A program made the translations under genes and the position numbers. A DNA stretch of 64,000 nucleotides from Spirochaetia bacterium (GTDB taxonomy: Bacteria > Spirochaetota > Spirochaetia > DSM-16054 > Sediminispirochaetaceae): assembly GCA_034520965.1 (NCBI GenBank), contig JAXHMY010000001.1, forward strand, positions 160,001 through 224,000, in the 5' to 3' direction. The notes under the pieces are model-generated. The model saw only the letters and a list, made by a program, of their open reading frames with translations. It was not told the DNA's origin and made no database searches. This document shows positions 16,870-63,688 of this stretch, one piece after another (position 1 is the stretch's first letter; every line of letters begins with the position of its first letter).

Positions 16870-18303
16870 ATGAAAAATTCAGCGTTATTAACAGATTTGT
16901 ACGAACTCACCATGATGCAGGGCTACTATTTGTATGAGCGTGACACCCAGGTGGTCTTTGATATGTTCTTCCGCACCCAGCCCTTTAACAGCGGCTTTTC
17001 GGTTTTTGCCGGTTTAGAGGATATGCTGAAGGCGGTTGAAGGTTTTTCTTTTTCAGAGGAAGACATCGATTATCTGTCGGGTTTGAATCTGTTTCATGAC
17101 AGTTTTTTGGAGTATCTGAAGAATTTTCGTTTCACCGGCGACATTTACAGCATGTCCGAGGGCACACTGATCTTTCCCGGCGAACCACTGCTGCGTGTTC
17201 ACGGCAACCTGATCGAGGCACAGTTGATAGAGAGCATGTTGCTAAATACCATAAATTTTCAATCCCTGGTGGCCACGAAAGCCGCCCGTATCTACCATGC
17301 CAGCAAGGGGGGCAAGATCCTGGAGTTCGGTCTTAGGCGGGCTCAAGGTTGGGACGGAGCTTTATCCGCCACCCGAGCCGCCTATATTGGAGGAGCTCTA
17401 GCCACTTCCAATACCCTGGGCGGAAAAACGTACGGGGTACCGGTAAGTGGTACTATGGCCCATTCCTGGATTATGGCCTTTAGATCAGAACTGGAATCCT
17501 TTGAAAAATTTGCCGAACTCTACCCCGATAAGGCAATCCTGCTTATCGATACCTTTGATACCCTGGGCAGCGGTATAGAAAACGCAATTAAGGTAGGAAA
17601 ATTACTTAAAAAGCAGGGAAAACGACTGGGAGTGCGGCTTGACAGCGGAGACCTCTCCTACCTGAGCCAGAAAGTCCGGAAAAAGCTCGATGCTGCCGGT
17701 TTGGAAGATGCCTACATCACCGTTTCAAACGATCTGAACGAAGAGATTATTCATCAGCTGGTCACCGACAACGCCCCGATTGATATGTGGGGTGTGGGGA
17801 CGAACCTTGTAACCGGAGGCTCCACCGCCTCCTTCAGCGGGGTCTACAAACTAACGGCCAAAACCATGGATGGATTGATGGTGCCCACCATGAAGGTTTC
17901 TAACAATATTGAAAAAACAACCAATCCGGGGGCGAAGCAAGTATACCGCTTTTATGACGATGATAACATGGCAATCGCCGACTTAATAACCCTGGAAGAG
18001 GAAGATTTCAATTATAACCGGCCCCACTCTTGCTTCCATCCTATGTACCCGAACACCTATTTTACGCTTTACAACTATACATCGGTGGAGCCTCTCCTTC
18101 ACAAAAAGATGGAAAATGGCAGAATCTGTGGGAAGCTGCCGAAACTTGCAGATATCCGCGAGCATACTCTTGAGCAGATGCTCAAATTTGATCCGACCTA
18201 TAAACGTATTATCAATCCCCATATTTACAAGATATCCCTCTCGCGGGCACTCAAAAACCTGAAAACCAGAATGATCGATGAGTTCAAGCATGAAGGTCGG
18301 TGA
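16870..18303 (+). CDS. pncB: Nicotinate phosphoribosyltransferase
   Basis: LLTDLYELTM, EFGLRRAQG, GTMAHSW, LIDTFD, GVRLDSGD. Confidence 0.96.
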   Translation: MKNSALLTDLYELTMMQGYYLYERDTQVVFDMFFRTQPFNSGFSVFAGLEDMLKAVEGFSFSEEDIDYLSGLNLFHDSFLEYLKNFRFTGDIYSMSEGTLIFPGEPLLRVHGNLIEAQLIESMLLNTINFQSLVATKAARIYHASKGGKILEFGLRRAQGWDGALSATRAAYIGGALATSNTLGGKTYGVPVSGTMAHSWIMAFRSELESFEKFAELYPDKAILLIDTFDTLGSGIENAIKVGKLLKKQGKRLGVRLDSGDLSYLSQKVRKKLDAAGLEDAYITVSNDLNEEIIHQLVTDNAPIDMWGVGTNLVTGGSTASFSGVYKLTAKTMDGLMVPTMKVSNNIEKTTNPGAKQVYRFYDDDNMAIADLITLEEEDFNYNRPHSCFHPMYPNTYFTLYNYTSVEPLLHKKMENGRICGKLPKLADIREHTLEQMLKFDPTYKRIINPHIYKISLSRALKNLKTRMIDEFKHEGR

Positions 18304-19378
18304 CCGGACTATCGATTCCAAATCTCCGGTTCTTATTATTGCAGAAGCCGGTACCGCCCACCTTGGAGAGCTGGATCGAGCAAAAGGGCTTATTGATGCA
18401 GCGGCGGAAGCAGGTGCCGATTGTATTAAATTCCAATGGGTAATCGCCGATGAAATAGTCCACCCAAATGCCGGAACTATCCAGCTGCATAATAAGCCGG
18501 TCACAATTTGGGAGCGTTTTAAGGCTTTAGAACGGCCCCCGGAATTCTATGCATCCCTCAAAGAGGAAACGGAGCGGCGTAAGCTTCTGTTTCTCTGCTC
18601 TCCCTTCGGCCCCAGGAGTGCGCTTGGGCTTCGCGACCTGCAGGTAGAAGCGATAAAAATAGCCTCGCCTGAACTCAACCATTTCCCCCTGCTCGAGATA
18701 GTCTCCGACCTTCCGCTTATTCTTTCCACCGGGATCTCAAAATTAGCGGACATTGAGCGCAGCTTGGAAATTCTCCGCAGCCCCGCGGCTTTGCTGCATT
18801 GCATCACCGCCTATCCCGCCCCGGAACAGCAATACAACCTGAGGCTGCTGCCGGGCTTGGCAAAAGTTTTCGGTACCCCCGTAGGGGTCTCCGACCACTC
18901 CTCCCACCCTTATCTGGTGCCCAGCTTATCCGTAAGCCAGGGGGCCAAGCTGATTGAGAAGCATCTTACCCTGAACCGGCAGGACGGCGGCCTTGATGAT
19001 CCTATTGCACTCGAACCAACGGAGTTTGCGCACATGGTTCGCCGAGTGAGGGAGGCAGAAAGGGAATCAGCAGACCAGCTTATAAAAGGATTGTCGGACG
19101 AACTGGGGGCATCATACGTTGAAAAGACCCTTGGGAACGGAATAAAAAAAATGGCCGATGCTGAATCAGCCTATTACTACACCAGCAACCGCTCTATCAT
19201 TGCCCGCAGCACACTGTTGCCCGGGGATGAGCTAAATCCGGATAACTGTGCCCTGCTGCGCTCCGAACAGCAGCAGCCCCCCGGCCTGCCTCCCCAGTTT
19301 GTATCCACAATCACGGGTAGGCAGATCAAAAAGAGAGTTCCCGCCGGTGCCGGTGTTACCTGGGATCATCTCCTGTAA
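18290..19378 (+). CDS. N-acetylneuraminate synthase family protein (NeuB/PseI/SpsE-like) with SAF domain
   Basis: IIAEAG, IKFQ, KIASPE, LHCITAYP, SDHS, IEKH. Confidence 0.9.
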   Translation: MKVGDRTIDSKSPVLIIAEAGTAHLGELDRAKGLIDAAAEAGADCIKFQWVIADEIVHPNAGTIQLHNKPVTIWERFKALERPPEFYASLKEETERRKLLFLCSPFGPRSALGLRDLQVEAIKIASPELNHFPLLEIVSDLPLILSTGISKLADIERSLEILRSPAALLHCITAYPAPEQQYNLRLLPGLAKVFGTPVGVSDHSSHPYLVPSLSVSQGAKLIEKHLTLNRQDGGLDDPIALEPTEFAHMVRRVREAERESADQLIKGLSDELGASYVEKTLGNGIKKMADAESAYYYTSNRSIIARSTLLPGDELNPDNCALLRSEQQQPPGLPPQFVSTITGRQIKKRVPAGAGVTWDHLL

Positions 19379-20227: not shown

Positions 20228-20228
20228 A

Positions 20229-20597: not shown

Positions 20598-20610
20598 CTC
20601 TCACACCTCC

Positions 20611-22990: not shown

Positions 22991-23013
22991 TCTTCTTTTT
23001 AACTCCAGTTCTG

Positions 23014-25656: not shown

Positions 25657-25664
25657 ATATTTTC

Positions 25665-26033: not shown

Positions 26034-26055
26034 GCATATGCTCCTTTAACTTTTC

Positions 26056-27342: not shown

Positions 27343-27465
27343 CAATAACCCTCATACTTTTATCACCACCAATTATTTGAGATAATAACTTAAATTGCAA
27401 ATTTAAAAATAAAAAATACAAATCCGGAGTATTACCCGGGTATAGGAGTTCTCCTCCGACTCAAT

Positions 27466-48147: not shown

Positions 48148-48193
48148 GCTAAGTTACCTCCACCTCGTAGTCATTCAAAATTAGTTTTATCAT

Positions 48194-49507
48194 CTATCGC
48201 TTTCTATATGCACGTACCATTCCGTTTGAAATATCTTCAAACATATCCGAAACGAGCTCTTCCTGTCGCCCGAGTATCAGAATACCGCCGGGTTTTAATT
48301 TTTCGCTGAATTCCTGCGCCAAACCATCCTGCTCATCCTGCTTCTGAAATGAAAGGATATCACGGGCTACTATCAAATCAACCTCAGGAAATGGATTGGA
48401 GTGCAGTACATTATGAAATTCGAAAAAGATTGCATCCCTAATTTCTTTATTAAACTGTAAGCCGTTCTTTCCCTCGACGGTATAATCTTCGAACTCATCA
48501 GATAGATCGGCGGAAGAAAAAATCAAGTTAGGCGCAGTTGAAATATTCAGCAAATCGTTATCGTGGGCCCACACTTTCAATTGGCTGTTGGGGAAACTCT
48601 CCTTGAGGATAATCCCCAGAGAGTATGTTTCATACCCCGCGCCACAGCCCGGGTTCCACACCATCACATTGCCCTGCACCTGGAGCTGTTTGAGAATCTC
48701 TTTTACCGCACTACAGTAATCGTTTCCCCAAAAACCGCCTGAATAGGGCGAGTAAAAGGGCTGGAGAAATCGGTCGGCATCCTCCGCTTCCTGGAGCTGG
48801 ACTTCAGCACCTTCCTTCGTGCGCTGCTGTCGCCACTCCTCAAAGCGGCTGCGAACCCAATTACGGTTATATTCGGTTACGTGAAAACTACGGAAAGTTT
48901 GAAGGGTCTCGACCACAAAGGCGTAATCAGTTTCTCCGGATTTTTCCGCTTGGTCCTGCTCCGCCTCGGGTTCTCTGACCGGTTGCGTAACCAACTGAGG
49001 CTGAGCACTTGCTTCTTCCTCGTGGCGGGTGTCGCCCAAAATCTTTTCCACATCAAGAATTAAATAGAGGCGGCCCTCATTTTCAACGACCCCCTTAATA
49101 AACTTGATATTGATATCACCGAAAATCGGATGCGGCGGCTGAATAGATTCAGAATTAATTCCTACGACCTTATCGATTGAGTCGACAATAACCCCTATTA
49201 AGTAATCATCCAGCCGCAGGATTATCATATCCTCAAAACTGGCTTCTTCCCGCTTCGGGGCCGGCAGGTTAAACATTATTCGCAAATCAATAATCGATAT
49301 GATATCGCCGCGCAGGTTATATACCCCACGCACATACGGATCGGCATTAGGTACATAGGTAAAGCGTTTAGCCTTGGATATTTCCTTTACCTTCATTATA
49401 TCAATACCATAGTCTTTACCAGCTAAGGAAAAGGTGACCATCTTATAATCAATGTTCTCAACTTTTACAGCTTCTTCTTGTTTTAACTCGTCACTAATAG
49501 TGCTCAT
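48194..49507 (-). CDS. cheW: CheW-CheR fusion coupling protein (CheW3-like)
   Basis: N-terminal CheW (GVYNLRGDII), C-terminal CheR-like (WNPGCGAGYETYS, LIVARD). Confidence 0.93.
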   Translation of the reverse strand: MSTISDELKQEEAVKVENIDYKMVTFSLAGKDYGIDIMKVKEISKAKRFTYVPNADPYVRGVYNLRGDIISIIDLRIMFNLPAPKREEASFEDMIILRLDDYLIGVIVDSIDKVVGINSESIQPPHPIFGDINIKFIKGVVENEGRLYLILDVEKILGDTRHEEEASAQPQLVTQPVREPEAEQDQAEKSGETDYAFVVETLQTFRSFHVTEYNRNWVRSRFEEWRQQRTKEGAEVQLQEAEDADRFLQPFYSPYSGGFWGNDYCSAVKEILKQLQVQGNVMVWNPGCGAGYETYSLGIILKESFPNSQLKVWAHDNDLLNISTAPNLIFSSADLSDEFEDYTVEGKNGLQFNKEIRDAIFFEFHNVLHSNPFPEVDLIVARDILSFQKQDEQDGLAQEFSEKLKPGGILILGRQEELVSDMFEDISNGMVRAYRKR

Positions 49508-49528
49508 ACATCCTCACAAATTGAGTCT

Positions 49529-51922
49529 TTAGGTAATCTGAGTAGAACGGCGCTTCCGGTTCTCTATTTCACGCCGTAAACCAAGATCCAATAGCTGACT
49601 TACATCGATGATCAACGCCACTGTTCCATCTCCAAGGATGGTAGCACCGGCGATACCCGGAATATTGGTGTACTTATCTTTGAGGGGCTTGATAACCACA
49701 TCCTCTTCACCGATCAAGGAGTCGACCATCAAACCCATTTTCTTCTCGCCGCTGCCAACTATAACTACATATTGGGTCTCTTTTTGGTCATTGCTCGGAA
49801 CCCCGAATAAGCGGCTTAAGCGCAAAAGTGAAACTACATCTTCACGGACATTAAAAACTTCGTAGTTGTCAATCATCTTTACATCGCCCGAATTAATGCG
49901 GTGGCTGTCCACTACCGAGGTAATCGGGATAGCATAGATTTCCTCTCCAACCCGAATCAGCAATCCCTGAATGATAGCTAGGGTAAGGGGAATTTTAATG
50001 GTAATACGGCTGCCCTCGCCTTTTTCGGACCAGACACTCACATTTCCGTTCAGTTTTTCAATCTGCTTTTTGACTACGTCTAATCCCACTCCCCGGCCGG
50101 AGAGGTTCGTTACCTGCTTGGCTGTCGAAAAGCCCGGTTCAAAGATAAGGTTAAAAGCCTCAATTTCAGTGAGCTTTTTGTTGGGATGAATCAGTCCGCG
50201 GTCTACCGCCTTCTTATGAACCGATTCAACATCGATTCCTTTTCCATCGTCCTCTACCTCTATAATGATCATGTTGCCTTCGTTACTCGCCTTCAGCATG
50301 ACATGGCCATCAACCGTTTTACCCGCAGCCTTCCGTTCTTCCGGACTCTCTACACCGTGGTCGATTGAATTACGCACACAGTGAATCAGGGGGTCCAACA
50401 GGTCTTCGATTACCGACTTATCAAGCTCGGTATCTTCACCCTCAATTTCCAGTTTTACGTTTTTGCCTATCTCCTTGGAAACATCCCGCACCAGACGGGG
50501 AAAGCGGTTGAAAATCTGGCTAATAGGAACCATTCGGATCTGCATGACTCCTTCCTGCAGATCACTGGTATTACGGCTGAGGTTTTGAGCTGTACTGTTA
50601 AACTCGTTTACCGTGTTCTTAAAGCGGGTCTCGAAGGAGTCGTACATGGTATATAAATCGCCAAAGCGTTCAATCACTTCGGCTTTGATTTTCTTTACCG
50701 AGGTACCCTCCTGAATTCGTTCAAGATACATCGGAAGACTGTCAAACAGCTCCCGCAGCTTCTCGTAGTAGACCGATTTTACAGAACTCAGTTCTCCCTG
50801 AGCATCGACAAACTTGCTGCTGATTTGATTAAAGGTCGCCTTGGTAATAACCGCCTCACTGACCATATTCAGAAGATTATCTATGCGCTTCGAGTCGACC
50901 CGCAGCACCGAACCTGAACCTCCGCTCTTTCGCAGTTCATGTTCTTTGGAGGGTTTGGGCTCGGCCTTGGCAGCCGGTGCTTCTTCTTCGGAAGTGTGCT
51001 CCTCGGGAGCTGCGGCTTGGGCCGCTTGGGCGGGTTGGGAGGGTTGAGCCTCAGCTTCGCGGGTAGCAGCCTGGGCTGGAGCCTTCTGAAAAGGTTCCGG
51101 CTGCTTTTCGACGGCTCCGGCGGCTATTTGATCGACGGTGGTTATTTGCGTATCTGAAACTACATCGGGTATGTGCACCTTACGTTCGATCGCATCTACC
51201 GGAGAATCGGTAGAAACATAGTAATATACCACCGGAAAAAATTGATCTTCGTACAGTTTTTCAAACTCAGGAACAGTTTTCAAGACCGTTCCAATATCCT
51301 TCATAGCGGCAAACACCTGAATTCCGCCAATGCTGTTCATGGGATGGTCCTCGTTGAACTCAACCATCACCTGATATACCGTCTCGCCGGTTTCCGCCGC
51401 AGCTTTTAGCTCGAGCAGATCATACTCTGACAGGGTACTTTCCCCGGAACCCGCCGCCGTTGCTTGTGCAGCTGGGGCAGGCTGTGCAGCGATAGGCTTT
51501 CCTCCCGACTGAGGAGCAACTGTGCCGCTTTGCAGCAGAGAACGCAGTTTCGACTGGAGGTCGGAAATGTCTTCGTCATAAGAACTTCCCTCCTTCTGTG
51601 CAGACAGCATTCCCTTTATCACATCGATTGAATTGAGCAGAATATCGACTACCTGCTCGCCGGCATGAACCTCGTTACTGCGGATAGCATCCAGCACATC
51701 TTCAACCAGATGGGTAAATTCAGACATTTTAGTCATCTGAACGGTAGCGGCGGCGCCTTTTAAAGTGTGGGCAGCTCGAAATATTTCGTCGATTGCATCA
51801 TGATCGCTGGGATCATTCTCGAGCACAAGAATATTCTGCTCAAGCGCATCAACCTGCATCTCGGCCTCAATAAAAAAGTCCTTTAGCAGTTCCTCGTTGT
51901 TCGGATCCAAATAGTCACTCAT
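49529..51922 (-). CDS. cheA: Chemotaxis histidine kinase (flagellar, CheA2 type)
   Basis: MSDYLDPNNEELL, RAAHTLKG, P2 domain, HCVRNSIDHG, SGRGVGLD. Confidence 0.97.
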   Translation of the reverse strand: MSDYLDPNNEELLKDFFIEAEMQVDALEQNILVLENDPSDHDAIDEIFRAAHTLKGAAATVQMTKMSEFTHLVEDVLDAIRSNEVHAGEQVVDILLNSIDVIKGMLSAQKEGSSYDEDISDLQSKLRSLLQSGTVAPQSGGKPIAAQPAPAAQATAAGSGESTLSEYDLLELKAAAETGETVYQVMVEFNEDHPMNSIGGIQVFAAMKDIGTVLKTVPEFEKLYEDQFFPVVYYYVSTDSPVDAIERKVHIPDVVSDTQITTVDQIAAGAVEKQPEPFQKAPAQAATREAEAQPSQPAQAAQAAAPEEHTSEEEAPAAKAEPKPSKEHELRKSGGSGSVLRVDSKRIDNLLNMVSEAVITKATFNQISSKFVDAQGELSSVKSVYYEKLRELFDSLPMYLERIQEGTSVKKIKAEVIERFGDLYTMYDSFETRFKNTVNEFNSTAQNLSRNTSDLQEGVMQIRMVPISQIFNRFPRLVRDVSKEIGKNVKLEIEGEDTELDKSVIEDLLDPLIHCVRNSIDHGVESPEERKAAGKTVDGHVMLKASNEGNMIIIEVEDDGKGIDVESVHKKAVDRGLIHPNKKLTEIEAFNLIFEPGFSTAKQVTNLSGRGVGLDVVKKQIEKLNGNVSVWSEKGEGSRITIKIPLTLAIIQGLLIRVGEEIYAIPITSVVDSHRINSGDVKMIDNYEVFNVREDVVSLLRLSRLFGVPSNDQKETQYVVIVGSGEKKMGLMVDSLIGEEDVVIKPLKDKYTNIPGIAGATILGDGTVALIIDVSQLLDLGLRREIENRKRRSTQIT

Positions 51923-52067
51923 TATGGCATTAATCTTCATATATAACGAACTTTAAGTCAAGTATAAACTTTACAGAGAGTCCAAAATGTCGATATTCTG
52001 AATAGAGTCTTTTTATTGAAACTACAGCGTTATGCTATACACTATTCCACATAGGAGTTTACTGGTG

Positions 52068-54316: not shown

Positions 54317-55294
54317 CTACTCGTTGCCGCCTGCTTGTTCTTGTTCAGCTTCATCCTGGTGAAGTTTCTGCTGTTCAAGCGCTCGCAGAACCTGCAGTTC
54401 ACCCAGTCGCTGCCATTCAGCATTCCTTCGAGAGGTTTCACGCTCTTCAAGAATACCCCACAGTGCTTCGTTATCAATCCCGCCTTCATCAGGCATAACC
54501 GCAAGATCGTAGGTCAGAGTTACATCTTTGATGTACGCAATGGTGTCTCCACCCATTTGTGATGCATCCTTGTAGATGACAAAGCCCTTCAACTTACGCA
54601 TTGGGGTGAGCTTCGGGTAAAGGGGCATGCGCCGCAATTCTCGATTGCGTACGTCATCTACGTAGTTGGGGTTTAACCACCCAAGCTCTCTCCAGCCCCT
54701 AAATTCCATGTAATCGAGGAACATATTTCGTTCATTCCCATCCTGGTCTTCCAGGATAATCCCGATTCCATTGGGGAAGTTCGAACCATAGACGTTTACC
54801 GCAACCTTTTTCAGTGCTCCTACGTTCTTTACCACACCGTAGCCCTCAAACTTGCTGCCTTCGCGATCCTGTTCATCCGCCTGCATGTAGGCAGGAATCT
54901 CAAAGGGAGGTCTGATTATGGCATAAGAGTTATAAGGTTCTTCGGGAAAGTGAACCCGAATACCCATAACATTTTCACCAGCAAACTGCTGGGCATCATC
55001 TCGTACAGGCGCTTCCTGCGTGTAGGAAAGCCGCATATTCTGTACTGTCCTAGAAGATGAAGCCAGCTGTACATCCCAATTTTCAATGGCTAGGGACGTA
55101 ACCATCAGCTCCTTTTCTTCTTCGGTGAAACCAACACCTGCTTTTTCGGAAAAGTCAACGAGAGTTGCTTCGTTATTTCCATCCTCGAGATCCGCGGTAA
55201 GAGTCGAAAAATCGATGAGAACCGATTCCTCTGCGGTAACAGAAAAACTTACCACCAAAAGCATAATACCAAGTAGAATTCCGAACCGTTTCAT
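54317..55294 (-). CDS. flaA: Flagellar filament outer layer (sheath) protein
   Basis: Signal peptide, VLIDFS, SLAIENW, MGIRVHFP, PPFEIPAY, GYGVVKNVG, NPNYV..VRNRE. Confidence 0.96.
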   Translation of the reverse strand: MKRFGILLGIMLLVVSFSVTAEESVLIDFSTLTADLEDGNNEATLVDFSEKAGVGFTEEEKELMVTSLAIENWDVQLASSSRTVQNMRLSYTQEAPVRDDAQQFAGENVMGIRVHFPEEPYNSYAIIRPPFEIPAYMQADEQDREGSKFEGYGVVKNVGALKKVAVNVYGSNFPNGIGIILEDQDGNERNMFLDYMEFRGWRELGWLNPNYVDDVRNRELRRMPLYPKLTPMRKLKGFVIYKDASQMGGDTIAYIKDVTLTYDLAVMPDEGGIDNEALWGILEERETSRRNAEWQRLGELQVLRALEQQKLHQDEAEQEQAGGNE

Positions 55295-55380: not shown

Positions 55381-55863
55381 TCATTTCGTTGAGTCCGTGT
55401 AGTCAATTTTAGGCTGTTCTCCATTTACTGTAAAGACAATTTTTTCAATTTGTGGATAATTAAAGGTAATAGTCTTACGTACACAGTCCAGAGCCTCCTC
55501 AAAAGAGAGCCGGGACTCACTTTCCTGAAATATCACGTGGATCGAAAAATCAATAAAAAGTCGATTCTCCCGCAGCATAAGGGTCTGTAAAATACTCTCC
55601 TGAGGCAGCACTGCCACAGAATTCACATCAAAAGGACCTAATATGATTTCCTTCACCAGTAGTTCAATTTCCTGCTCTGTTGTCGGTTTAGTCGGCAGCA
55701 CACGTTGCTCTCCAACACATTCTGAAGAGCGGTATTCCGGGAAAAAGAGTACCTGCCGGTGCTTATCAGTTCCATTGATCAAGAAGAGAAGCAGAGAGAC
55801 CGTGAGGCTCACCGCTAGCACTCCAACTAAAATAATTGTAATTCTATCCAGGTTTTTCACCAA
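55381..55863 (-). CDS. GerMN-domain membrane-anchored protein
   Basis: N-terminal TM, EIILGP, LFIDFS, FTVNG; position between amidase and flaA. Confidence 0.7.
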   Translation of the reverse strand: MVKNLDRITIILVGVLAVSLTVSLLLFLINGTDKHRQVLFFPEYRSSECVGEQRVLPTKPTTEQEIELLVKEIILGPFDVNSVAVLPQESILQTLMLRENRLFIDFSIHVIFQESESRLSFEEALDCVRKTITFNYPQIEKIVFTVNGEQPKIDYTDSTK

Positions 55864-56910
55864 TTACTCCCGTACGGAGGGGTTTTCGAAGTGTTCGATA
55901 AATCCGTGAACGCCATTATAGATGCCTTCTGCGATTTTCTTCAAGTGAGCTGCACTGCGCATTTTAAAAGCTTCCGCCCGATTTGTCACAAAGCCGATTT
56001 CCACCAACACCGAGGGCATCTTTGCATCTCGGACTACAAACCAGGTCTCTTCCTTTAAGCCCCGATTCACGTGTAAATTCCCAACCGAGGCATCCAGATT
56101 GTCCAGAATTTTTTGAGCCAGTAGGATACTTTCAACTGTGTACTCCTCTTCAAGCATCGTATTTAGGATTGGAGCTACTTCTCGGGCTGATTCATCCAAA
56201 GTAGCCGGGTCGATCAGCTTCCGGCGGTAATCTGTGGGCAGATACCATACCTCAAAGCCTTCGGCCTTGCTATTTAGGGAAGCGTTCGCATGAATTGAAA
56301 TGAAAATCATCGACTCACGTTGGTCAAGTTCAACTCCATTTGCTATCTGGGTACGCTCCTCCAGGGTCAAATACACATCATTCTCACGGGTCAGAACAAT
56401 ATTCTTATCAGGGTATCGGCTGTGAAGACGATCTGAAAGTTGACGGGCTACCTCCAGCACAAGATCTTTCTCCATTATCACCACTTTATCACCTTTTTCC
56501 TCGAAGCGACCAAGCGCTCCGGAGTCCTTCCCGCCATGGCCGGCATCAATGATTATAGTGGAAATGTAATGCTGATTTTCCTTTTGTGTGTAAAGGCCTA
56601 AAGTTTCGATTATATATGAAGCATCTTCTGAAGAAAACCAGATATCCCCGGACTCACCCCGCTGGGGAGGTTCTATTGATTCAAAGGAGTTGTAATTAAC
56701 CAGCAGAAACGCAGAACCGAGACTATACACCAAGCTGGTCTCACCCTTTTCGATACTACCCATCTGCCGCATCGGGTCCCAGACCAGTTGAGCTCCGGTT
56801 TTGCTGCGAATCTCTTTCAGTGCCACTCCAGGCTCACCCCACAGAGGCAGTAAAATACCCAATAGAAGTCCTATAAAAAATATGTTAGAAAACCTCTTCA
56901 GGTGTATCAC
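55864..56910 (-). CDS. N-acetylmuramoyl-L-alanine amidase (Amidase_3)
   Basis: IDAGHGGKD, EKD, FISIHANA, MPSVLVEIGF. Confidence 0.95.
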   Translation of the reverse strand: MIHLKRFSNIFFIGLLLGILLPLWGEPGVALKEIRSKTGAQLVWDPMRQMGSIEKGETSLVYSLGSAFLLVNYNSFESIEPPQRGESGDIWFSSEDASYIIETLGLYTQKENQHYISTIIIDAGHGGKDSGALGRFEEKGDKVVIMEKDLVLEVARQLSDRLHSRYPDKNIVLTRENDVYLTLEERTQIANGVELDQRESMIFISIHANASLNSKAEGFEVWYLPTDYRRKLIDPATLDESAREVAPILNTMLEEEYTVESILLAQKILDNLDASVGNLHVNRGLKEETWFVVRDAKMPSVLVEIGFVTNRAEAFKMRSAAHLKKIAEGIYNGVHGFIEHFENPSVRE

Positions 56911-58558
56911 TATTCAGCTCCGTAAATACAATCTCTATCGGCTGCGAGCGGAGAACCGCCTGCCGAATGCTTTCAAGCAGCCACACTGCCCCTTGGATAC
57001 CCCCACGCAGAAAGGCGTTCCAGAGTATCGCTCCTACCACTATATCGGCATATTTCTCTTGCTCCGCAAGCTGTACCCGGCTCAGCTTAATGACTTTATT
57101 CCAGGCTTCTTCGAAACCCTGGCCATGCCAGTCTTTGGAGCTTTCCGCTGCAATATTGGGAAGGGTACACACCGCGATTGAAGGCTCCTTCGGTGAAGAG
57201 AGCTGCTCATAACTGCGGCGAAGGTCTTTGTAATCCGGCATAGCTGCAAAAACTCGCTTATTTTCCCGGTTTTCAACAACAAAAGCATCCGGAATCCAGG
57301 CTTCTTTTTGCTGAAACAGAAAGCGACGGGTTACAGAATGATTGGGTTGCAGGCGGACAAATACAGTTCGACAGGCGGCTTCGGCCGCATCGACTGCGGC
57401 GCTGCGTTCAGGGGCCGCACTGATAAAATTCCCGCTTTTCTCGACGTTATTAGTAGGAAAGTCAACCTTATCACCCGGAGAAACCCGAATAAACATCTCC
57501 TCTATCCATTTGATAGAACGAGCATGATCGCTGTTCTCAACACTGTCCACTATTCCGGGTATAGATATAAAGGCCCGTTCAGCGGATACCCAGTCTCGAG
57601 TGGGCCCCAGAGTCTGGGGCTGAAGCCCCACCGCCAGCTGAAGTGCATTTCCGGTCAGCTCAACCCCGCTGGAATAGGGGTACGTCCAGCCGGACATATA
57701 GCCCCCGGACAAACGAGCGGCAACCTCGCCTATCACCGCCCTCCGGCCGTCCCACTTTACATCGCCCTTTGCCGCACCGTTGCGAATTCTTAATGCCCGT
57801 ACAGCGTGTATAAAGACCTCTTTCACGGCCTCAAGTACATTTTCGTCACAGTTCGACGGTATAGTATGACCCATTTCAATAAAATAGGGAGGAAAGTAAA
57901 TGTGCCGGTCTGCAATTCCGGTACACACTACCTCATCCCCCAGAGCCAACGCATCTATACTAAACTCCTGCCCCTTGACGTACTCCTCTACAATGACAAC
58001 CCCGGTTCGGGAGAACCGGCGCGCCCGGTCGACTGCAGTCTGATACTCATCGAGGGTATCTACCCGGCGAATTCCGCGGGCCCCCATATTATCAACCGGC
58101 TTCACTACCACCGGAAGCTTGAGGTTCTCCAGCGCTGCATCCACTTCACCACCGGCGGGAAGCTTTGCAAAACGGGGGGACGGAACTCCGGCAGCCGCAA
58201 ACACCGTCCGCATTCTATCCTTGTGGCTGGCGTTAAGAGCTACCTCCGGCTCTATTCCTGGCAGCTGCAAGGCCTTGGCCACACTTGCCACGGTATAAGA
58301 AAAATCGGTACCCGCAGTAAACACTCCATGCAATTTTTCGTCTTTATGTATCTTTCCGGCCGCCTCGACCATCCCCTCGATATCAGTCAGATCAACCGGC
58401 ACAAAATGATCGGCAAGTTCGGCACCGGGAGCCTTCGGATTCCCATCGGCAACGTATACTTCCCAGCCCTGCCCCCTTGCCCAGCGCAGGGCCGGCAGCT
58501 GCATAACCCCGGCGCCCAAAATGAGAACTCGTTTTGCATCTTCAGTCTGTCCGTTCAT
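56885..58558 (-). CDS. ATP-grasp domain ligase
   Basis: LILGAGVMQ, PVVVKPVDNMGARG, IVEEYVKGQEFSID, EVAARLSG. Confidence 0.88.
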   Translation of the reverse strand: MNGQTEDAKRVLILGAGVMQLPALRWARGQGWEVYVADGNPKAPGAELADHFVPVDLTDIEGMVEAAGKIHKDEKLHGVFTAGTDFSYTVASVAKALQLPGIEPEVALNASHKDRMRTVFAAAGVPSPRFAKLPAGGEVDAALENLKLPVVVKPVDNMGARGIRRVDTLDEYQTAVDRARRFSRTGVVIVEEYVKGQEFSIDALALGDEVVCTGIADRHIYFPPYFIEMGHTIPSNCDENVLEAVKEVFIHAVRALRIRNGAAKGDVKWDGRRAVIGEVAARLSGGYMSGWTYPYSSGVELTGNALQLAVGLQPQTLGPTRDWVSAERAFISIPGIVDSVENSDHARSIKWIEEMFIRVSPGDKVDFPTNNVEKSGNFISAAPERSAAVDAAEAACRTVFVRLQPNHSVTRRFLFQQKEAWIPDAFVVENRENKRVFAAMPDYKDLRRSYEQLSSPKEPSIAVCTLPNIAAESSKDWHGQGFEEAWNKVIKLSRVQLAEQEKYADIVVGAILWNAFLRGGIQGAVWLLESIRQAVLRSQPIEIVFTELNSDTPEEVF

Positions 58559-60431
58559 CCGATTCTCCAATACTGTAAAAAATTTCGCTCACCTTCTCTG
58601 CATACAGCTCAAAGGTATCCCCAAGCCTCGCCCCGCGGCTCACCCATCCAAGCGGTGAAAACAGCAATGTGCGGGCTGTATCCTGGACAGTCTTCCGCGC
58701 ATTTTTGTGCTGAACACCGGCCGTCCCAATCAGTGGGAACCGTTCCGGATGATGACCGGTCACCCTGACCTTTCTGATTTTGAAACCAAACCGTGGTAAA
58801 ACTCTACGGGCAATTGCCGGGCTCCAGACCGTATGATGATCCCGGGGGCTCTGCTCCAAAAAGCCCTTTATGGAGCGGGTGCCGCTAATCCCCGAACTGT
58901 TGGGAGTAGAAAATGCAAACAATCCGCCTATTTTAAGACAGCGGTTCGCCTTGCACAAGATGCGGTCAACCCGGGGAAAATGTTCAAGGACAAACCACAT
59001 ACTTATAACGTCGTATCGCTTTTGACTGCCCTTCAGATCTACTTCAAAATCTTCAAACGTTCCGTTCCAAGCCGGCAGCTTTAGTTCGCTCCGCACATAG
59101 TCTACTGCTGAGGCTGCCGGATCAATGCCCTCAGGCTGATACCCTGCCTCATAGGCTGCAGATAGAAAGGGCCCGTAGGCACAGCCTACATCCAGGAGGC
59201 GGGGAGCTTCGTCTGCAGTAGCGCCGGCAGTTCGCTTTTGGCTAAGCCGGTGAATCACAGCCATACGGCGCTTGCCCATTTCCCTGATAGCATCGAAGTC
59301 TTCCAGATAACTGCGCCCGTACTGACTGCGGTACTCATCAAAAAAGTAATTTTCATTGTAACGGGGCTGTTCCGGTCGTAAGAAATCAAGCTGATACAGC
59401 AAGCCGCAGTGGGAACAGCGAAAAAAGCTGCGGTCGACACTTCGCAGCACCGGCTTGGCGCCCAAACGCCCGCATACAGGGCAGTCACGAACTTCCGGAG
59501 GCCGCAGGTGGCCCAGGAACTCCCCGGGTGAGCGTTTTTCCTGCGGTGCGGCCTCCTTGGCCAATTTCAGCACCTGCGCCGGCGAGGCCAGGAGTCGCAA
59601 AAAATGGCGGGAGTGGATTCGCCGTACGCCCACGGACGGAAATCCGGCCAGATGACTCAAGCGACGGTGATATGTGCTCGGGTTGAGCAGTATCACCCCG
59701 CAGCCGGCGTAGGCGGCCTCATAGGCGGTCAGACCAAAACTTGTGCACACCAGGTCATATTTCCACAACTGTTCTGAAAGCTTCGCAGGAGCTTTTAGAA
59801 CTTTTACCTCCGGCGGCAGGCTGCGGGGGCCGAACAGCGGGCCCAAGACTACCGTAATATCAGCTGCAGCGAAACCACCCCGCTTAATGAGCCAGCGGGT
59901 ACACAATTCGGTTAGAAGCGCCGGATCCTCACCACCAAAACTTACCAGCACACTTCGGAAGTGGGTCATTGAAGCTGTGGCAGCACTTTTTTTCTGCTCG
60001 GGGAGGGAAAGAAGTCCAGGTTCAATCAGGTTAGCCGGTCCGAACCGTGGTGGTAGTGGAAAAGTATCAAGTAAGTAGGAAAAGGACCGACGGCGCGACC
60101 CTCCTTCATCCACGCCAATCATGGGTATGCCGGTACGACTCCACCAGCGAAAATCTGACTTGTCCGTCGCCCGCCGGTCTATCAGCACAAAATCCCACTG
60201 TGACGCGGTAATTGACTGAGCATCATGAAAGAAACAGCTCGAGTCCAATCCGTTGACGTCGGCCATATCGTAAAATACATTTTGCCATTCCGAAGGTTTA
60301 ATGAAAACTCCGACGGAATCTTGCGGAAAGGTATACAGTAACTGGGTACTCCACTGCAGAGCCCTACGCAAATGACCAGTTCCATTGCCGGGTGTAACCG
60401 AGGGTGCCCACAGAAAACGGTACGAGCCCAT
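58542..60431 (-). CDS. PseG/SpsG-like (GT-B fold) domain fused to a zinc ribbon and class I SAM methyltransferase
   Basis: GNGTGHLRR, VSFGGEDP, CPVC..CSHC, LLDVGCAYG, WFVLEH. Confidence 0.8.
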   Translation of the reverse strand: MGSYRFLWAPSVTPGNGTGHLRRALQWSTQLLYTFPQDSVGVFIKPSEWQNVFYDMADVNGLDSSCFFHDAQSITASQWDFVLIDRRATDKSDFRWWSRTGIPMIGVDEGGSRRRSFSYLLDTFPLPPRFGPANLIEPGLLSLPEQKKSAATASMTHFRSVLVSFGGEDPALLTELCTRWLIKRGGFAAADITVVLGPLFGPRSLPPEVKVLKAPAKLSEQLWKYDLVCTSFGLTAYEAAYAGCGVILLNPSTYHRRLSHLAGFPSVGVRRIHSRHFLRLLASPAQVLKLAKEAAPQEKRSPGEFLGHLRPPEVRDCPVCGRLGAKPVLRSVDRSFFRCSHCGLLYQLDFLRPEQPRYNENYFFDEYRSQYGRSYLEDFDAIREMGKRRMAVIHRLSQKRTAGATADEAPRLLDVGCAYGPFLSAAYEAGYQPEGIDPAASAVDYVRSELKLPAWNGTFEDFEVDLKGSQKRYDVISMWFVLEHFPRVDRILCKANRCLKIGGLFAFSTPNSSGISGTRSIKGFLEQSPRDHHTVWSPAIARRVLPRFGFKIRKVRVTGHHPERFPLIGTAGVQHKNARKTVQDTARTLLFSPLGWVSRGARLGDTFELYAEKVSEIFYSIGESDERTD

Positions 60432-60434
60432 ATT

Positions 60435-61145
60435 CTAACCTGCAATCATATGGAGCTGGGAAATTCCCCGAATAAGCTGTTTGGTGGTGATCGGTTTACC
60501 CGAATACAGTGTATTAAAAATGGTTTGCAAGCGACGGTAATCCCGGTCGGTATCCAAAGTAACCCTCATCCCGGGAAAAAAGCACTCCTTCGGAGCCAAG
60601 GGCCGATAGACTCTGAAGAGGTCAGGATGATTGTAAAGATACGGACAGACATGCTCTCGATCATATCTGCTTTCGGCCTCACGGTGGGCCCTTAGAAGTG
60701 CTTCCGCGCGCACACACTCCACACCTGTTCCAACCGGCAGACCTTCAAACCCGCTGTAATCGATCTGCCGCTCCCACTGATGTTCCTCTTGATGCATCAG
60801 GTAGAGCTCTAACAGCTGAGCCCCACATTCGCCACTCACTAAAGGATTATCGCCGGTAGCGCGGATAACCGTATCAACCTGAAAATGATTGATTGCATCG
60901 GCATAACGCTGTAGAACATCTTCCTTAGGCCCGATAAATGTTTCAAATCCGGCGGCTTTTGCATGGCCGGATAATGCCTTATAACTGTCACGATCGGTTA
61001 CCAGGGCATAGATATCCGCCGGAACCTTCTTCAGAGCCTCCATTGCCAGCTCTACCACAGGCCTTCCACTCAAAGGCAGCAGCGCCTTCTGAGGCAAACG
61101 GGCAGAATCCAACCGAACCTGCAGGAACACACCTACTCTACTCAT
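60435..61145 (-). CDS. SpsF/PseF-like acylneuraminate cytidylyltransferase
   Basis: QVRLDSARLPQKAL, EDVLQRY, IRATGDNP, REHV, TLDT. Confidence 0.9.
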   Translation of the reverse strand: MSRVGVFLQVRLDSARLPQKALLPLSGRPVVELAMEALKKVPADIYALVTDRDSYKALSGHAKAAGFETFIGPKEDVLQRYADAINHFQVDTVIRATGDNPLVSGECGAQLLELYLMHQEEHQWERQIDYSGFEGLPVGTGVECVRAEALLRAHREAESRYDREHVCPYLYNHPDLFRVYRPLAPKECFFPGMRVTLDTDRDYRRLQTIFNTLYSGKPITTKQLIRGISQLHMIAG

Positions 61146-62106
61146 GCTCAGGAACCTCCCAAAGCTCAGTCACATCCCGCGCATCCATAACAAAACGATA
61201 CTGATTCAAAGTCACCCACTGGCGGACTTTTTTAAACTTTTTCAATGCTGAGAAGAGTGAACTTCCCGATCGAATATAAAAGGGCAGGAAGCGACTCCAC
61301 GGCAGGGTGCCCGCATCTCCACTGAAACGCACCGACAGGTTTTTCAGGAAAAAAAGTTTGTAGCTCCCATCGGGAGTAGTATCTTCGGCCGGCTCGGAGG
61401 CCAGATAACGTATCCTAAAAGCGGACTCACACTCAATGGCTTCCCCCCACATATGAGCCCGAAAACCAAAGTCCATCTTTTGCCAATAGGAACTCTCAAT
61501 CAAGTAATCATAACCACCGGTCAGCAAAAACTTTTCCCGGCGATATATGCCGCTGTAATCGAAGGGGAACAGTGTTTTCATATCGTTTTTTTGGGGCAGC
61601 ATGGGCAATATCCGCAGATTGCGTTTGTGAAAGGCCGGTACCATGATTGACGGGACTGTCTCCAGTTTGGTGTTTTGAATAATTGGGACCGAACAGAGAC
61701 GGTCAGCCTCCACAATCCGCTGCAGCAGGTAAGTGTTCAACTGTGAGCTGACTTTCATATCGCTCCACATCACAAACACAAACTCTCCAGCCGCCTCTTT
61801 CATCCCCATATTAATTTGTTCACCCCGGCTCATATCTTCATGCAGCAGCAGGAATTTGATCCGCGGGTATTTTTGCGACAGAGAATCGATATCATAACTG
61901 GCGGAGGCACTTTCTACCGATAAAATCTCAATCTCTCCCAGTTGCTCCAGCTCTTTAAAATACTCCTGCCGGTAAGGACGGCTGCCGCGGTGCAGAAGCA
62001 GTATACTGAGGGGCGGACTGACCTGCAGGGAACGGTCTTCCCTGTTTCCTCCGACTATTGTGTAGGGGACCCTTAAAGACTTAGAAGTTGTAGGTATAGT
62101 ACTCAT
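61138..62106 (-). CDS. Conserved hypothetical protein, degenerate GT-A/GT2-like fold
   Basis: GEQINMGMKEAAGEFVFVMWSD, GGYD, MDFGFRAH. Confidence 0.6.
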   Translation of the reverse strand: MSTIPTTSKSLRVPYTIVGGNREDRSLQVSPPLSILLLHRGSRPYRQEYFKELEQLGEIEILSVESASASYDIDSLSQKYPRIKFLLLHEDMSRGEQINMGMKEAAGEFVFVMWSDMKVSSQLNTYLLQRIVEADRLCSVPIIQNTKLETVPSIMVPAFHKRNLRILPMLPQKNDMKTLFPFDYSGIYRREKFLLTGGYDYLIESSYWQKMDFGFRAHMWGEAIECESAFRIRYLASEPAEDTTPDGSYKLFFLKNLSVRFSGDAGTLPWSRFLPFYIRSGSSLFSALKKFKKVRQWVTLNQYRFVMDARDVTELWEVPEHE

Positions 62107-63688
62107 CACAACTCCTGCATAATTCGGGATAATCCGCCTCGATGTGCCGTCGGTAGTATTTATTTCCACGCCCCCATATAGTCTCAATATCTTCTTCAAA
62201 TATATTGCCCAGAGAATACTTTTGCTGCAGATCCTCACGGCACATGGGAACACTGCCGTCAATGAGAATCGTAAGGTCCCGCTTCAAATGCCAGCACGGA
62301 AAACGCTTGATTGGCGATAAATCGGTCACTTTCCGCTCCGGCAAGGCACCGCAGAAGGAGTCATATTTCTGAACAATCGGAGAGACATGTTCTTGCTGCT
62401 TCCAGTACCGGTAGAACTGATCCAGCTGCTCTTCGTTTTCGCGCATGCGAACCGCCTGCACATATACTAAGTCGGGAAACAGCCGGCATAGCAACTCGAT
62501 AGAGGCCTGGACATCCTCCCACTGCGGTCCGCGTAGCTGGTTATACATTTGTCGTTCATGAGCGTCAAGGGATACAATCCAGGTAAGCCGATCTCCAACC
62601 GGTACACCACCGGCAGTTGCCCCCTGCCCAAATTGACGACCAAGTTCCTGCAGGGTCGCCAGGGACCATCCGACACCGGATGTTTCAATTACCAGCGACA
62701 GAGCAGGTCGCTCTAACACAGCAGTGACAATATCAACAAAACGCGAGTGAAGAGAAGGCTCTCCCCATAATGAAACTCCGATTACGGCATCACCACATAG
62801 TTTTTCTACCTTGTCGACCATCTCTGTCCAGCGTTCAAGAGACATTTCCCCCCGTCTGCTCAGCACATCACCACCCATCTGTGGAAAAGCGCAATAACTG
62901 CAAGCCTGCGGGCAGCCGTCGGTAATCTGCACATTCACATACGCCGGAAGGGTGCGCAGCAGCTCAGGTTGTTCTTCGATAATCCGCTGCACCGATTCGG
63001 CAGAGCTTCCTCCGGCGGCGATAATAGCCTTCAGCTGATAAAAATTACGCCGTGTATCGGCGGTTAAACTTACCCGTAAAAGCCGCTGGTCTGTCGGAGC
63101 AACTTCCGTCTCTAGATCGAAGGCATTAATATCTTTTTGGACTACCTCAAAAATGAAGTCCCGGCCGGCAGGAACAGCATAGCGTTCGGCCAGCTCGATA
63201 AGCTGGGGAAGTGCGCTTGCTTTGAGAATTTCCGGAGTCAGCCCCCGCGGATATCCGTCGGCAAAGGTGTAATCGGCAAAATAGCGCCGATGGCTGTGCT
63301 GCATCTTTTCCAGCAGCCCTGCATCCAGCAAGGGAGCATCGCCCCATACCAGGAACAAGTCGGCCGGACTGCCCTCCGGACTGCTATCCGGGCCGCCTTT
63401 CTCGACTGCGGATTGCATTGTCTGCAGCAGTTCAGCAGCACTCCAGTTCGGTTGACTGTGAATGGAAATAAGCTCCCGATCCAGATACGGCTCCACAAGG
63501 GGCAGCAAATCCTCCCTCGGCAGATCAGTCAGGACTATTACCTGCTCGAAACTCCTTTGAAAGGGCGGTTTCTGCAGAAGATATTGAAAAGCCGTCACCG
63601 ACTTTCCCTTACTGCCGGTTAAAGGAAGCGGTTCCTTCAAGGCGTAAGGGGTGAGTCCAAGGGCATGTATAAAAAGTACATTTCTCAT
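62081..63688 (-). CDS. Spiro-SPASM protein (cytidylyltransferase-like N-terminus + radical SAM + SPASM)
   Basis: GDAPLLD..YTFADGYP, CPQACSYC, GEPSLH, PCWHLKRD..DGSVPMC..LGN..CRSC. Confidence 0.9.
   Translation of the reverse strand: MRNVLFIHALGLTPYALKEPLPLTGSKGKSVTAFQYLLQKPPFQRSFEQVIVLTDLPREDLLPLVEPYLDRELISIHSQPNWSAAELLQTMQSAVEKGGPDSSPEGSPADLFLVWGDAPLLDAGLLEKMQHSHRRYFADYTFADGYPRGLTPEILKASALPQLIELAERYAVPAGRDFIFEVVQKDINAFDLETEVAPTDQRLLRVSLTADTRRNFYQLKAIIAAGGSSAESVQRIIEEQPELLRTLPAYVNVQITDGCPQACSYCAFPQMGGDVLSRRGEMSLERWTEMVDKVEKLCGDAVIGVSLWGEPSLHSRFVDIVTAVLERPALSLVIETSGVGWSLATLQELGRQFGQGATAGGVPVGDRLTWIVSLDAHERQMYNQLRGPQWEDVQASIELLCRLFPDLVYVQAVRMRENEEQLDQFYRYWKQQEHVSPIVQKYDSFCGALPERKVTDLSPIKRFPCWHLKRDLTILIDGSVPMCREDLQQKYSLGNIFEEDIETIWGRGNKYYRRHIEADYPELCRSCDEYYTYNF

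Follow-up and report, generated by a model that had tools for sequence, protein, structure and literature searches.

Gene organization of the locus

The window (the whole stretch of 64,000 nucleotides that was analysed) carries five overlapping or abutting genes followed by an amidase gene, a GerMN-domain gene and flaA, as well as a NeuB-family synthase gene that faces them across chemotaxis genes (Table 1). The five-gene cluster and the presence of the synthase in the same window had been described in an earlier note made from the letters alone, and both were borne out, all five open reading frames lying on the minus strand with the ends that had been proposed for them. The successive junctions from the spiro-SPASM gene to the amidase gene are −26, −8, +3, −17 and −26 nt, and the gaps that follow are 0 nt (amidase to GerMN) and 86 nt (GerMN to flaA). 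This arrangement is not due to chance, since the whole set of six genes that follows spiro-SPASM is kept in 38 of 49 named loci whose downstream sequence extends for 6.5 kb or more.

The cluster had also been said to run directly into amidase-GerMN-flaA, which stands as adjacency only and not as co-transcription, because a 12/12 sigma-70 promoter match precedes flaA itself. The proximity to flaA was set aside as evidence for this reason, and because amidase-GerMN-flaA persists without the sugar genes at another locus (L212). NeuB and the cluster are convergent within 60 kb in 15 of the 42 genomes that have both genes on one contig.

Table 1. Position and nature of the features of the locus (coordinates refer to the window).
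Feature	Coordinates	Strand	Basis or remark
Spiro-SPASM protein (535 aa)	62081..63688	−	ATG at 63688; TIGR04321
GT2-like GT-A protein	61138..62106 (start 62106/62109)	−	PF00535; GT-A fold
SpsF/PseF-type cytidylyltransferase, predicted CMP-nonulosonate synthetase	60435..61145	−	PF02348
PseG-like UDP-sugar hydrolase fused to a zinc-ribbon class I SAM methyltransferase	58542..60431	−	3HBM, TIGR03590, motifs
L-amino-acid-ligase-type ATP-grasp protein, predicted acyl:amino-sugar amide ligase	56885..58570 (ATG 58558 or TTG 58570)	−	ATP-grasp_4, LAL_C2, ATPgrasp_N
N-acetylmuramoyl-L-alanine amidase, separate module	55864..56910	−	PF01520; retained in non-flagellated genomes
GerMN-domain protein, separate module	55381..55863	−	PF10646
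Sigma-70 promoter match upstream of flaA	55336..55363	−	12/12, spacer 16
FlaA flagellar sheath protein	54317..55294	−	PF04620
NeuB-family nonulosonate synthase	18278..19378	+	PF03102 + SAF

The spiro-SPASM protein

The first protein of the cluster scores 545.3 bits against TIGR04321 (curated cut-off 250) and comprises an N-terminal SpsF-like cytidylyltransferase fold lacking the CTP-binding motif, a radical-SAM barrel and a four-cysteine site. Its predicted model (pLDDT 90.5) matches the folds of BtrN (4M7T; Z 21.4), 6OEW (Z 20.7) and BlsE (Z 19.8), and HHalign relates it to the neighbouring SpsF at 97.6%. Full SPASM domains have seven or eight C-terminal cysteines and two auxiliary clusters; spiro-SPASM has four invariant C-terminal cysteines (C474, C492, C533 and C536), i.e. 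a site of the Twitch type. The CxxxCxxC motif occurs in the window protein (CPQACSYC) and in 105 of the 118 spiro-SPASM sequences, and it is absent from 13 orthologues, including proteins named T. denticola, T. pallidum and B. hyodysenteriae, which are full length and keep all four C-terminal cysteines. Our literature search returned no paper under the name spiro-SPASM and no reaction for the family. The long N-terminus of the f69 spiro-SPASM proteins was considered as a fused cytidylyltransferase and not supported, and Maf/radical-SAM fusions, suggested by Atlas scores of 0.80-0.81, were kept as a lead only, no homologue of greater length having turned up at E≤1e-10.

We tentatively propose, as the weakest step of the pathway described below, that spiro-SPASM could assist the CMP synthetase as an Fe-S-bearing partner that operates without radical chemistry. 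Alternatively, within the same flagellin pathway, it might be a genuine BtrN-like radical-SAM enzyme acting on sugars, tailoring the sugar or its acyl group by oxidation, epimerization or deoxygenation in most lineages, the cysteine-less ones making a simpler glycan. BtrN and BlsE are indeed close folds, BtrN carries a four-cysteine Twitch cluster (PMC9012708), and a radical reaction is still possible in most lineages because 105 of the 118 sequences keep CxxxCxxC. This alternative nevertheless appears unlikely, for the motif-less proteins are otherwise preserved as described above, and T. denticola, in which the motif is lost, still makes a complex glycan (PMC13439194). Since the T. denticola protein lacks this motif, a radical-SAM step in the synthesis of the acyl group of that species is also improbable.

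Enzymes of nonulosonate synthesis

The cytidylyltransferase combines PF02348 with an intact N-terminal RxxSxRxxxK motif, as SpsF/NeuA-type CMP-ulosonate synthetases do; its residues Q9, R11, S14, R16, K20 and D198-T199 are invariant, it matches 6OEW (E 5e-45), and it is the only strong PF02348 match in the four genomes G000, G050, G083 and G105. The PseG-like domain (about residues 1-300) shows both the motif, GxGxGHxxR, and the homology of PseG-type UDP-sugar hydrolases: R23 is invariant, G17, G19 and H20 occur in at least 90% of the sequences, the A2 profile matches PseG (3HBM; E 1.4e-6), and 32 of the 39 members match TIGR03590. NeuB is the sole match in its genome, and there is likewise one NeuB match at E≤1e-20 in G050, a genome whose proteins carry T. 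denticola names.

The window NeuB lies under both the NeuB and the PseI cut-offs. More generally, the Pse equivalog scores stay below their cut-offs for PseI (187.8 against 340 bits), PseB (177.3 against 408), PseC (354.8 against 423.5) and PseG (16.9 against 153.6), which we counted against the pathway reading.

The ATP-grasp ligase and the PseH step

With its ATPgrasp_N, ATP-grasp_4 and LAL_C2 domains, the fifth protein is an ATP-grasp ligase of the L-amino-acid-ligase type; its best structures are 4DIM and 3VOT, and the closest characterised ones are L-amino-acid ligases. Outside Spirochaetia, it is fused to FMN_dh, an FMN 2-hydroxy-acid dehydrogenase (Pfam in 8/8 proteins scanned; 18/18 aligned). 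Only 24-30 of the 151 Spirochaetia yielded a standalone FMN_dh, and the SNHGGR motif is lost in 3 of the 18 fused domains, so that there must be variation in the acyl group or in the way it is supplied. The C-terminal tail of the ATP-grasp protein was rejected as an FMN_dh relic (HHalign probability of 3-7% only).

No match to PseH (TIGR03585) exceeded the cut-off in five genomes; there was none whatever in G000 (86% complete) or G105 (99% complete, 1.1 Mb), and GNAT matches below the cut-off in G050, G102 and G124. Two genomes without ATP-grasp and PseG/methyltransferase genes, G211 and G230, have a canonical pse cassette of the order pseB-pseC-pseG-like-pseH-like-pseI, the PseH-like matches being weak and partial (about 39 bits versus 93). 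Both also retain spiro-SPASM without its usual neighbours, which counts against the pathway reading. The three best plasmid relatives are found in glycan clusters that include a DegT/PseC aminotransferase gene. In one of these clusters, NeuB, PseF, PseG-like, PseB and PseC proteins and methyltransferases are encoded, and no PseH appears among its 17 features.

The fusion to a hydroxy-acid dehydrogenase and the replacement by a cassette with a PseH-like gene lend support to the earlier suggestion that the ATP-grasp protein may ligate, and the methyltransferase methylate, the acyl group. It is also conceivable, although improbable, that the two enzymes act after or apart from a PseH step, for example by adding an amino acid to the sugar carboxyl or to the attached acyl group, the amine being acylated by an unrecognised acyl-CoA or acyl-carrier transferase. 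The L-amino-acid ligase structures and the sub-threshold GNAT matches would fit this possibility; against it stand the lack of any PseH-like match in G000 and G105, the T. denticola glycan, which as named in PMC13439194 consists of sugar and acyl group only, and the dehydrogenase fusion, which points to a hydroxy-acid substrate.

Co-occurrence with flagella

Phylogenetic profiling, suggested as a check in the earlier note, gave the expected outcome, since spiro-SPASM, ATP-grasp, PseG/methyltransferase, NeuB and Maf co-occur with flagellin. Among 151 Spirochaetia genomes (124 with flagellin, 27 without), spiro-SPASM occurs in 114/124 flagellin-positive versus 0/27 flagellin-negative ones; the ATP-grasp, PseG/methyltransferase and NeuB profiles track it closely, the first two being likewise at 0/27. 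Across the whole phylum, ATP-grasp and spiro-SPASM share one common profile in 161 of 166 genomes. Maf was found in 5/5 positive and 0/5 negative genomes. All eight genomes of the flagellated, Borrelia-named group f28 lack spiro-SPASM, ATP-grasp, PseG/methyltransferase and NeuB, the single one tested lacks Maf, and both flagellins aligned from this group have E115/D126 at two glycosylation sites. The genome of the window has four PF01973 Maf genes, two of them with Maf_flag10_N, and its FlaBs retain the T. denticola glycosylation sites with conserved acceptor Ser/Thr, as expected of Maf-dependent flagellin glycosylation.

As to apparent exceptions, G002 (main flaA also missing) and G260 (contig beginning at the amidase) probably reflect assembly gaps, and contig ends truncate the loci of G205 and G214. 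In G219 (91% complete), spiro-SPASM and a flagellin with intact sites are present, with no match to NeuB, PseG/methyltransferase or ATP-grasp, which counts against the pathway reading. On a quick LG+G4 RpoB tree, flagellin loss amounts to four changes, two of them on well-supported branches (sign test p ~0.5), so that the co-loss evidence rests on about four lineages.

The GT2-like gene behaves differently from the others. It occurs in 137 of the 151 genomes, including 21/27 without flagellin and 8/8 of f28, and still adjoins the amidase where the other four genes are lost. Its product scores 23.3 bits against PF00535, exactly at the cut-off, and has a GT-A fold (best folds, polypeptide GalNAc transferases) with W-[NS]-D in place of DxD and Q-K in place of ED; active GT2 enzymes have a DxD motif and the catalytic Asp of the ED motif. 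It was rejected as the transferase of the pathway on the basis of its profile and synteny. The five genes, taken as one pathway in the earlier note, are not one, given that genomes without flagella and Borrelia-like genomes keep the GT2-like gene beside the amidase. Spiro-SPASM, the SpsF cytidylyltransferase, PseG-like/methyltransferase and ATP-grasp form one module, present in almost all flagellated spirochaetes and missing from the non-flagellated ones.

That the nonulosonate serves another envelope glycan (glycolipid or outer-membrane glycoprotein), its flagellar link stemming from block deletion of the motility region, is an improbable reading: of 12 loci from non-flagellated genomes, 7 have NAPRT and the amidase tail-to-tail, so that NeuB, che and flaA were lost together there, and independent losses are few, but the GT and amidase genes are spared mid-block while flanking genes on both sides are lost, the unlinked Maf genes are lost too, and the sugar genes are retained even when dispersed (G050, G105, Leptospira, Brachyspira).

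Proposed pathway

Taken together, these data lead us to propose that the four genes probably encode later steps in the synthesis of an acylated pseudaminic-type sugar carried by FlaB flagellins, with ATP-grasp in the place of PseH. The observations themselves concern domain content, the order and co-occurrence of genes, protein fusions and lost motifs, and every reaction below is inferred. First, two enzymes whose genes lie elsewhere, a CapD/PseB-like dehydratase and a PseC-like aminotransferase, would form a UDP-4-amino-6-deoxy-HexNAc. Second, ATP-grasp, replacing the acetyltransferase PseH, would ligate a 2-hydroxy acid onto the amine; in T. denticola this acid would be a 3-deoxyhexonate, supplied by the FMN 2-hydroxy-acid dehydrogenase where present. 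Third, the methyltransferase would O-methylate the acyl 2-hydroxyl. Fourth, the PseG-like domain would remove UDP. Fifth, NeuB would condense the product with PEP. Sixth, the SpsF enzyme, perhaps with spiro-SPASM, would add CMP. Seventh, Maf proteins would transfer the sugar to FlaB Ser/Thr. Such a pathway would agree with the T. denticola glycan.

The earlier idea of a nonulosonate pathway tied to flagella is favoured by the profiling, by the dehydrogenase fusion, by the pse-cassette replacement and by related clusters in other phyla. By itself the cluster is incomplete, the synthase, dehydratase, aminotransferase, dehydrogenase and Maf genes lying elsewhere.

A broader reading, which we consider rather doubtful, traces flagellin glycosylation back to a single pathway of the last common spirochaete ancestor, which Treponema, Leptospira and Brachyspira would still use. 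There, a sugar-acid acyl group would be both produced and ligated by an ATP-grasp/flavo-dehydrogenase pair in place of acetylation by PseH, and spiro-SPASM would serve the CMP-sugar synthetase as a SAM-independent Fe-S subunit of radical-SAM origin. On this view, the glycan of Leptospira would be closely related to the 450 Da sugar of T. denticola.

The proposed pathway offers phylum-wide gene candidates for all of its steps, gives the near-universal spiro-SPASM family a first pathway placement and predicts flagellin glycan masses that can be checked by mass spectrometry. Acylation by ATP-grasp instead of PseH would account for part of the N-acyl diversity of bacterial nonulosonates, and, should the pathway hold, inhibitors directed against motility could be sought with these spirochaete-restricted enzymes as candidate targets. 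Our literature search returned no paper assigning these genes; some of the T. denticola ones may already have been named in Kurniyati 2017 or its supplements.

Comparison with known systems

The canonical pseudaminic acid pathway, PseBCHGIF with Maf, operates in Campylobacter and Helicobacter. The present system resembles it by a PseG-like hydrolase with the His motif, a NeuB synthase, a CMP synthetase, a dehydratase/aminotransferase pair and Maf in the genome, and differs from it by the lack of PseH, the components below cut-off, the SpsF-type synthetase and the additional ATP-grasp, methyltransferase and spiro-SPASM proteins. Like BtrN, spiro-SPASM has a radical-SAM barrel and a single four-cysteine C-terminal site; unlike BtrN, it has an extra cytidylyltransferase-like domain and has lost the SAM-cluster cysteines in 13 of 118 sequences.

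The passages on the T. denticola FlaB glycan in PMC13439194 assign no genes to its acyl group. G050 has the genes in dispersed positions; there, the cytidylyltransferase, PseG and methyltransferase form one protein, and spiro-SPASM lacks CxxxCxxC. The legionaminic acid pathway SpsCDEFGM of Bacillus subtilis likewise has an SpsF cytidylyltransferase next to an SpsG hydrolase and UDP-linked precursors, but depends on SpsD, an acetyltransferase, and serves to decorate the spore crust (PMC7439481).

The flagellin glycan of Shewanella oneidensis, which comprises a 274 Da monoacetyl nonulosonate and an O-methylated outer moiety of 236-264 Da, requires the NeuB, SAM methyltransferase and ATP-grasp_4 genes of sfmABCDE (PMC3765264), a gene content similar to the NeuB, methyltransferase and ATP-grasp genes linked to flagellin here. 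The sfm operon, next to which Maf genes lie, codes for a TPP enzyme as well as a FabG-type reductase and is part of a species-specific island (PMC3765264); neither enzyme is among the cluster open reading frames here, and the spirochaete system is distinguished by its PseG-like, SpsF, spiro-SPASM and FMN hydroxy-acid dehydrogenase proteins and by its phylum-wide conservation.

Flagellar distribution of the cluster

The earlier note had proposed that five genes build, methylate and ligate an unusual acyl group on a nonulosonic acid, probably of a flagellar glycan. Searching 151 Spirochaetia genomes (one sample, at least 90% complete, plus the window genome) with each gene, we found flagellin in 124, the GT2-like protein (GT) in 137, NeuB (the nonulosonate synthase encoded elsewhere in the window) in 117, spiro-SPASM in 114, the PseG-like/methyltransferase protein in 111 and ATP-grasp in 109, in counts where related genomes are not independent. 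The profiling proposed in the earlier note upheld the flagellar link, since spiro-SPASM, PseG-like/methyltransferase and ATP-grasp were each found in 0/27 flagellin-negative genomes; a distant NeuB occurred in only two of these 27. Ten flagellated genomes had no spiro-SPASM, namely G002 and G260, where assembly gaps are the probable cause, and all eight members of the Borrelia-like family f28, in which a Borrelia-named protein was found and NeuB is also missing. Glu and Asp occupy the S115 and S126 positions in both f28 flagellins that were aligned, and a passage of an earlier paper (PMC7431986) notes the loss of these serines in B. burgdorferi. Maf-type (flagellin glycosyltransferase-type) genes, four of them in the window genome, were present in 5/5 positive and 0/5 negative genomes.

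The distribution is much wider than one cluster: a sample of 166 genomes from across the phylum yielded spiro-SPASM in 161 and ATP-grasp in 161, the five genomes without a match being the same for both, and methyltransferase relatives occurred in 5/5 non-Spirochaetia genomes examined, two of them fused to PseG. Flagellin changed state four times and spiro-SPASM five times on a quick RpoB tree covering 30 selected genomes, with only two independent pairs on well-supported branches, which puts significance out of reach.

Architecture of the cluster

The five ORFs are as the earlier note described (Table), with junctions, from spiro-SPASM onward, of −26, −8, +3, −17 and −26 nt. Three findings mark the 629-aa protein as PseG-like in its N-terminal half: the family profile matches PseG 3HBM (E 1.4e-6), 32/39 family members match TIGR03590, and the GxGxGHxxR motif is retained. 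Among named relatives, Sediminispirochaeta-like genomes come closest. GT, cytidylyltransferase, PseG-like, methyltransferase, ATP-grasp and amidase genes were all present in 38 of the 49 loci that have at least 6.5 kb downstream (out of 80 named loci), and at least one was missing in 11. Adjacency to flaA proves little, because flaA has a perfect sigma-70 match of its own and a terminator-like hairpin.

Features of the window genome, with coordinates
Feature	Coordinates	Strand	Assignment or observation
spiro-SPASM	ATG 63688	−	TIGR04321, 545 bits
GT2-like	61138-62106	−	GT2 family exactly at Pfam cut-off
cytidylyltransferase		−	CTP_transf_3
PseG-like/methyltransferase, 629 aa		−	Methyltransf_23 in C-terminal half
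ATP-grasp	stop 56885	−	ATP-grasp_4 + ATPgrasp_N + LAL_C2
GT start/spiro-SPASM end	62081-62109		conserved MSTIPTT overlaps conserved CDEYYTYNF in a different frame
two ORFs, 213 and 262 aa	52032-53245	+	no Pfam family; conserved, opposite strand, between flaA and cheA
two separate chemotaxis gene sets	19763-27345 and 47683-51940	−	each with its own cheA; V-type ATPase operon between them
FMN 2-hydroxy-acid dehydrogenase, another contig	L244:8698-9711 (G000:C8:78697-79710)		N-terminal CxxCxxCxGxxC; overlaps galE-like gene
second zinc-ribbon methyltransferase	L245 (G000:C8:156950-157807)		related to cluster methyltransferase domain, 121 bits

Relatives of the 213- and 262-aa ORFs have a single ORF of about 390-404 aa, and the similarity ends at residue 124; a frameshift or sequencing error near 52405 is therefore probable.

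The GT2-like gene as a neighbour

Membership of GT in the five-gene pathway was not borne out, profile and synteny pointing to a neighbour. First, GT occurs in 21/27 flagellin-negative genomes and in 8/8 of f28. Second, a number of loci have the other cluster genes but no GT (L053, L056, L204, L208, L222 and Leptospira-type loci). Third, GT directly precedes the amidase in 8/12 non-flagellated loci fetched, whereas spiro-SPASM, cytidylyltransferase, PseG, methyltransferase and NeuB were found in 0/12. In seven of these loci NAPRT lies tail-to-tail with the amidase, whereas in the window it is followed by NeuB; NeuB, the chemotaxis genes and flaA were therefore lost together, GT and the amidase being kept. 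Of the 111 genomes listed with both NeuB and the cluster, 42 have the two on one contig, and in 15 of those the synthase faces the cluster at no more than 60 kb.

Near-core in Spirochaetia (137/151), GT remains the neighbour of the amidase both in Borrelia-like genomes and in those without flagella. Its profile match begins at position 13 or later where spiro-SPASM is lost, and the usual DxD and ED motifs are absent; it is possibly a pseudo-glycosyltransferase of cell-wall metabolism.

A candidate replacement for PseH

In nonulosonate pathways, the amine produced by a PseC-type aminotransferase needs acylation, normally by PseH. The window genome carries a CapD/PseB-like and PseC-like pair away from the cluster; PseH had no match there nor in G105, a 1.1 Mb spirochaete genome, and exceeded the cut-off in 0/5 genomes searched. 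G211 and G230 (family f69), with neither ATP-grasp nor PseG-like/methyltransferase, carry pseB, pseC, a PseG-like gene, a weak PseH-like gene and a true pseI, a replacement counted as one event because both belong to one genus. In their loci (L198, L360, L361) a canonical pseB-C-G-H-I cassette replaces the native genes.

Outside Spirochaetia, ATP-grasp has 723-778 aa (18/18 loci fetched), the extension being an FMN 2-hydroxy-acid dehydrogenase (8/8 scanned), degenerate in 3/18. A free dehydrogenase stands two genes behind a cytidylyltransferase-PseG-methyltransferase fusion in G105; the standalone enzyme of the window genome may or may not be the pathway orthologue. Two queries retrieved free dehydrogenases in 30/151 and 24/151 Spirochaetia, including 7/7 of family f26 and none of the non-flagellated or f28 genomes. 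This patchiness, the degenerate fused copies and G219, a flagellated, spiro-SPASM-bearing genome with NeuB, PseG-like/methyltransferase and ATP-grasp unmatched, count against one uniform product.

The T. denticola acyl group is a 2-O-methyl ether of a 2-hydroxy acid, the product expected of a hydroxy-acid dehydrogenase, an amide ligase and a methyltransferase acting jointly. The calculated mass of the glycan residue is 450.19 Da; the primary study reportedly gives 450.2 Da, with the acyl at N7. G050, whose proteins carry T. denticola names, has a single NeuB match and no strong candidate for a CMP synthetase other than the SpsF domain. We propose that ATP-grasp likely acylates the PseC-made amine in place of PseH, using a 2-hydroxy acid: the dehydrogenase would supply the acid, ATP-grasp would form the amide and the methyltransferase would O-methylate the acyl group.

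A proposed role for spiro-SPASM

The predicted spiro-SPASM model (pLDDT 90.5) combines an N-terminal cytidylyltransferase fold (6OEW, Z 20.7) with a radical-SAM/Twitch part (BtrN 4M7T, Z 21.4; SuiB, Z 22.8). HHalign (97.6%) marks the cytidylyltransferase-like domain as a paralogue of the adjoining SpsF, whose RxxSxRxxxK motif it lacks. We compared 118 distinct sequences, in which relatives of the window are over-represented: all of them have R479 and four C-terminal cysteines, while 13 have no CxxxCxxC, among them proteins that carry the names T. denticola, T. pallidum and B. hyodysenteriae. In loci that have no GT, such as the Leptospira-type ones, the cytidylyltransferase follows immediately after spiro-SPASM, and G211 and G230 retain spiro-SPASM after replacement of ATP-grasp and PseG-like/methyltransferase. 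These data lead us to infer that spiro-SPASM has a conserved function without radical chemistry close to CMP activation, probably as a partner subunit. A radical reaction is possible in the lineages retaining CxxxCxxC; radical chemistry probably does not make the known T. denticola acyl group, the motif being missing from the T. denticola-named protein.

The f69 spiro-SPASM proteins (L198, L360, L361) have 740-755 aa, with insertions. Clusters in the ESM Atlas include, for Thermodesulfobacteriota, proteins of cytidylyltransferase-radical SAM-SPASM architecture (score 0.96) and, as a lead only, Planctomycetota Maf proteins partly annotated with radical SAM (0.80-0.81).

Comparison with known systems

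Literature searches returned no paper under 'spiro-SPASM' and none assigning these genes, some of which a 2017 T. denticola paper may name. Flagellin mass shifts in Shewanella when NeuB, methyltransferase or ATP-grasp genes are deleted, and the glycan there is described as consisting of a monoacetyl nonulosonate of 274 Da and an O-methylated moiety (both from passages of PMC3765264). Each of the best 3 of 12 plasmid matches to ATP-grasp sits in a glycan cluster that also encodes a DegT/PseC aminotransferase. One of the three, the Solidesulfovibrio plasmid cluster L364 (NZ_CP026539.1), encodes NeuB, PseF, PseG-like, methyltransferases, ATP-grasp, PseB, PseC, FabG and transketolase halves, with no PseH annotated, and is an sfm-like system.

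Taken together, the earlier reading of a flagella-linked pathway holds in part: it is supported for four genes and not for the fifth, GT. In the way it works, the spirochaete module would resemble both the sfm pathway of Shewanella and the canonical Pse pathway, and we place it outside both classes because it has no PseH and no TPP enzyme or FabG.
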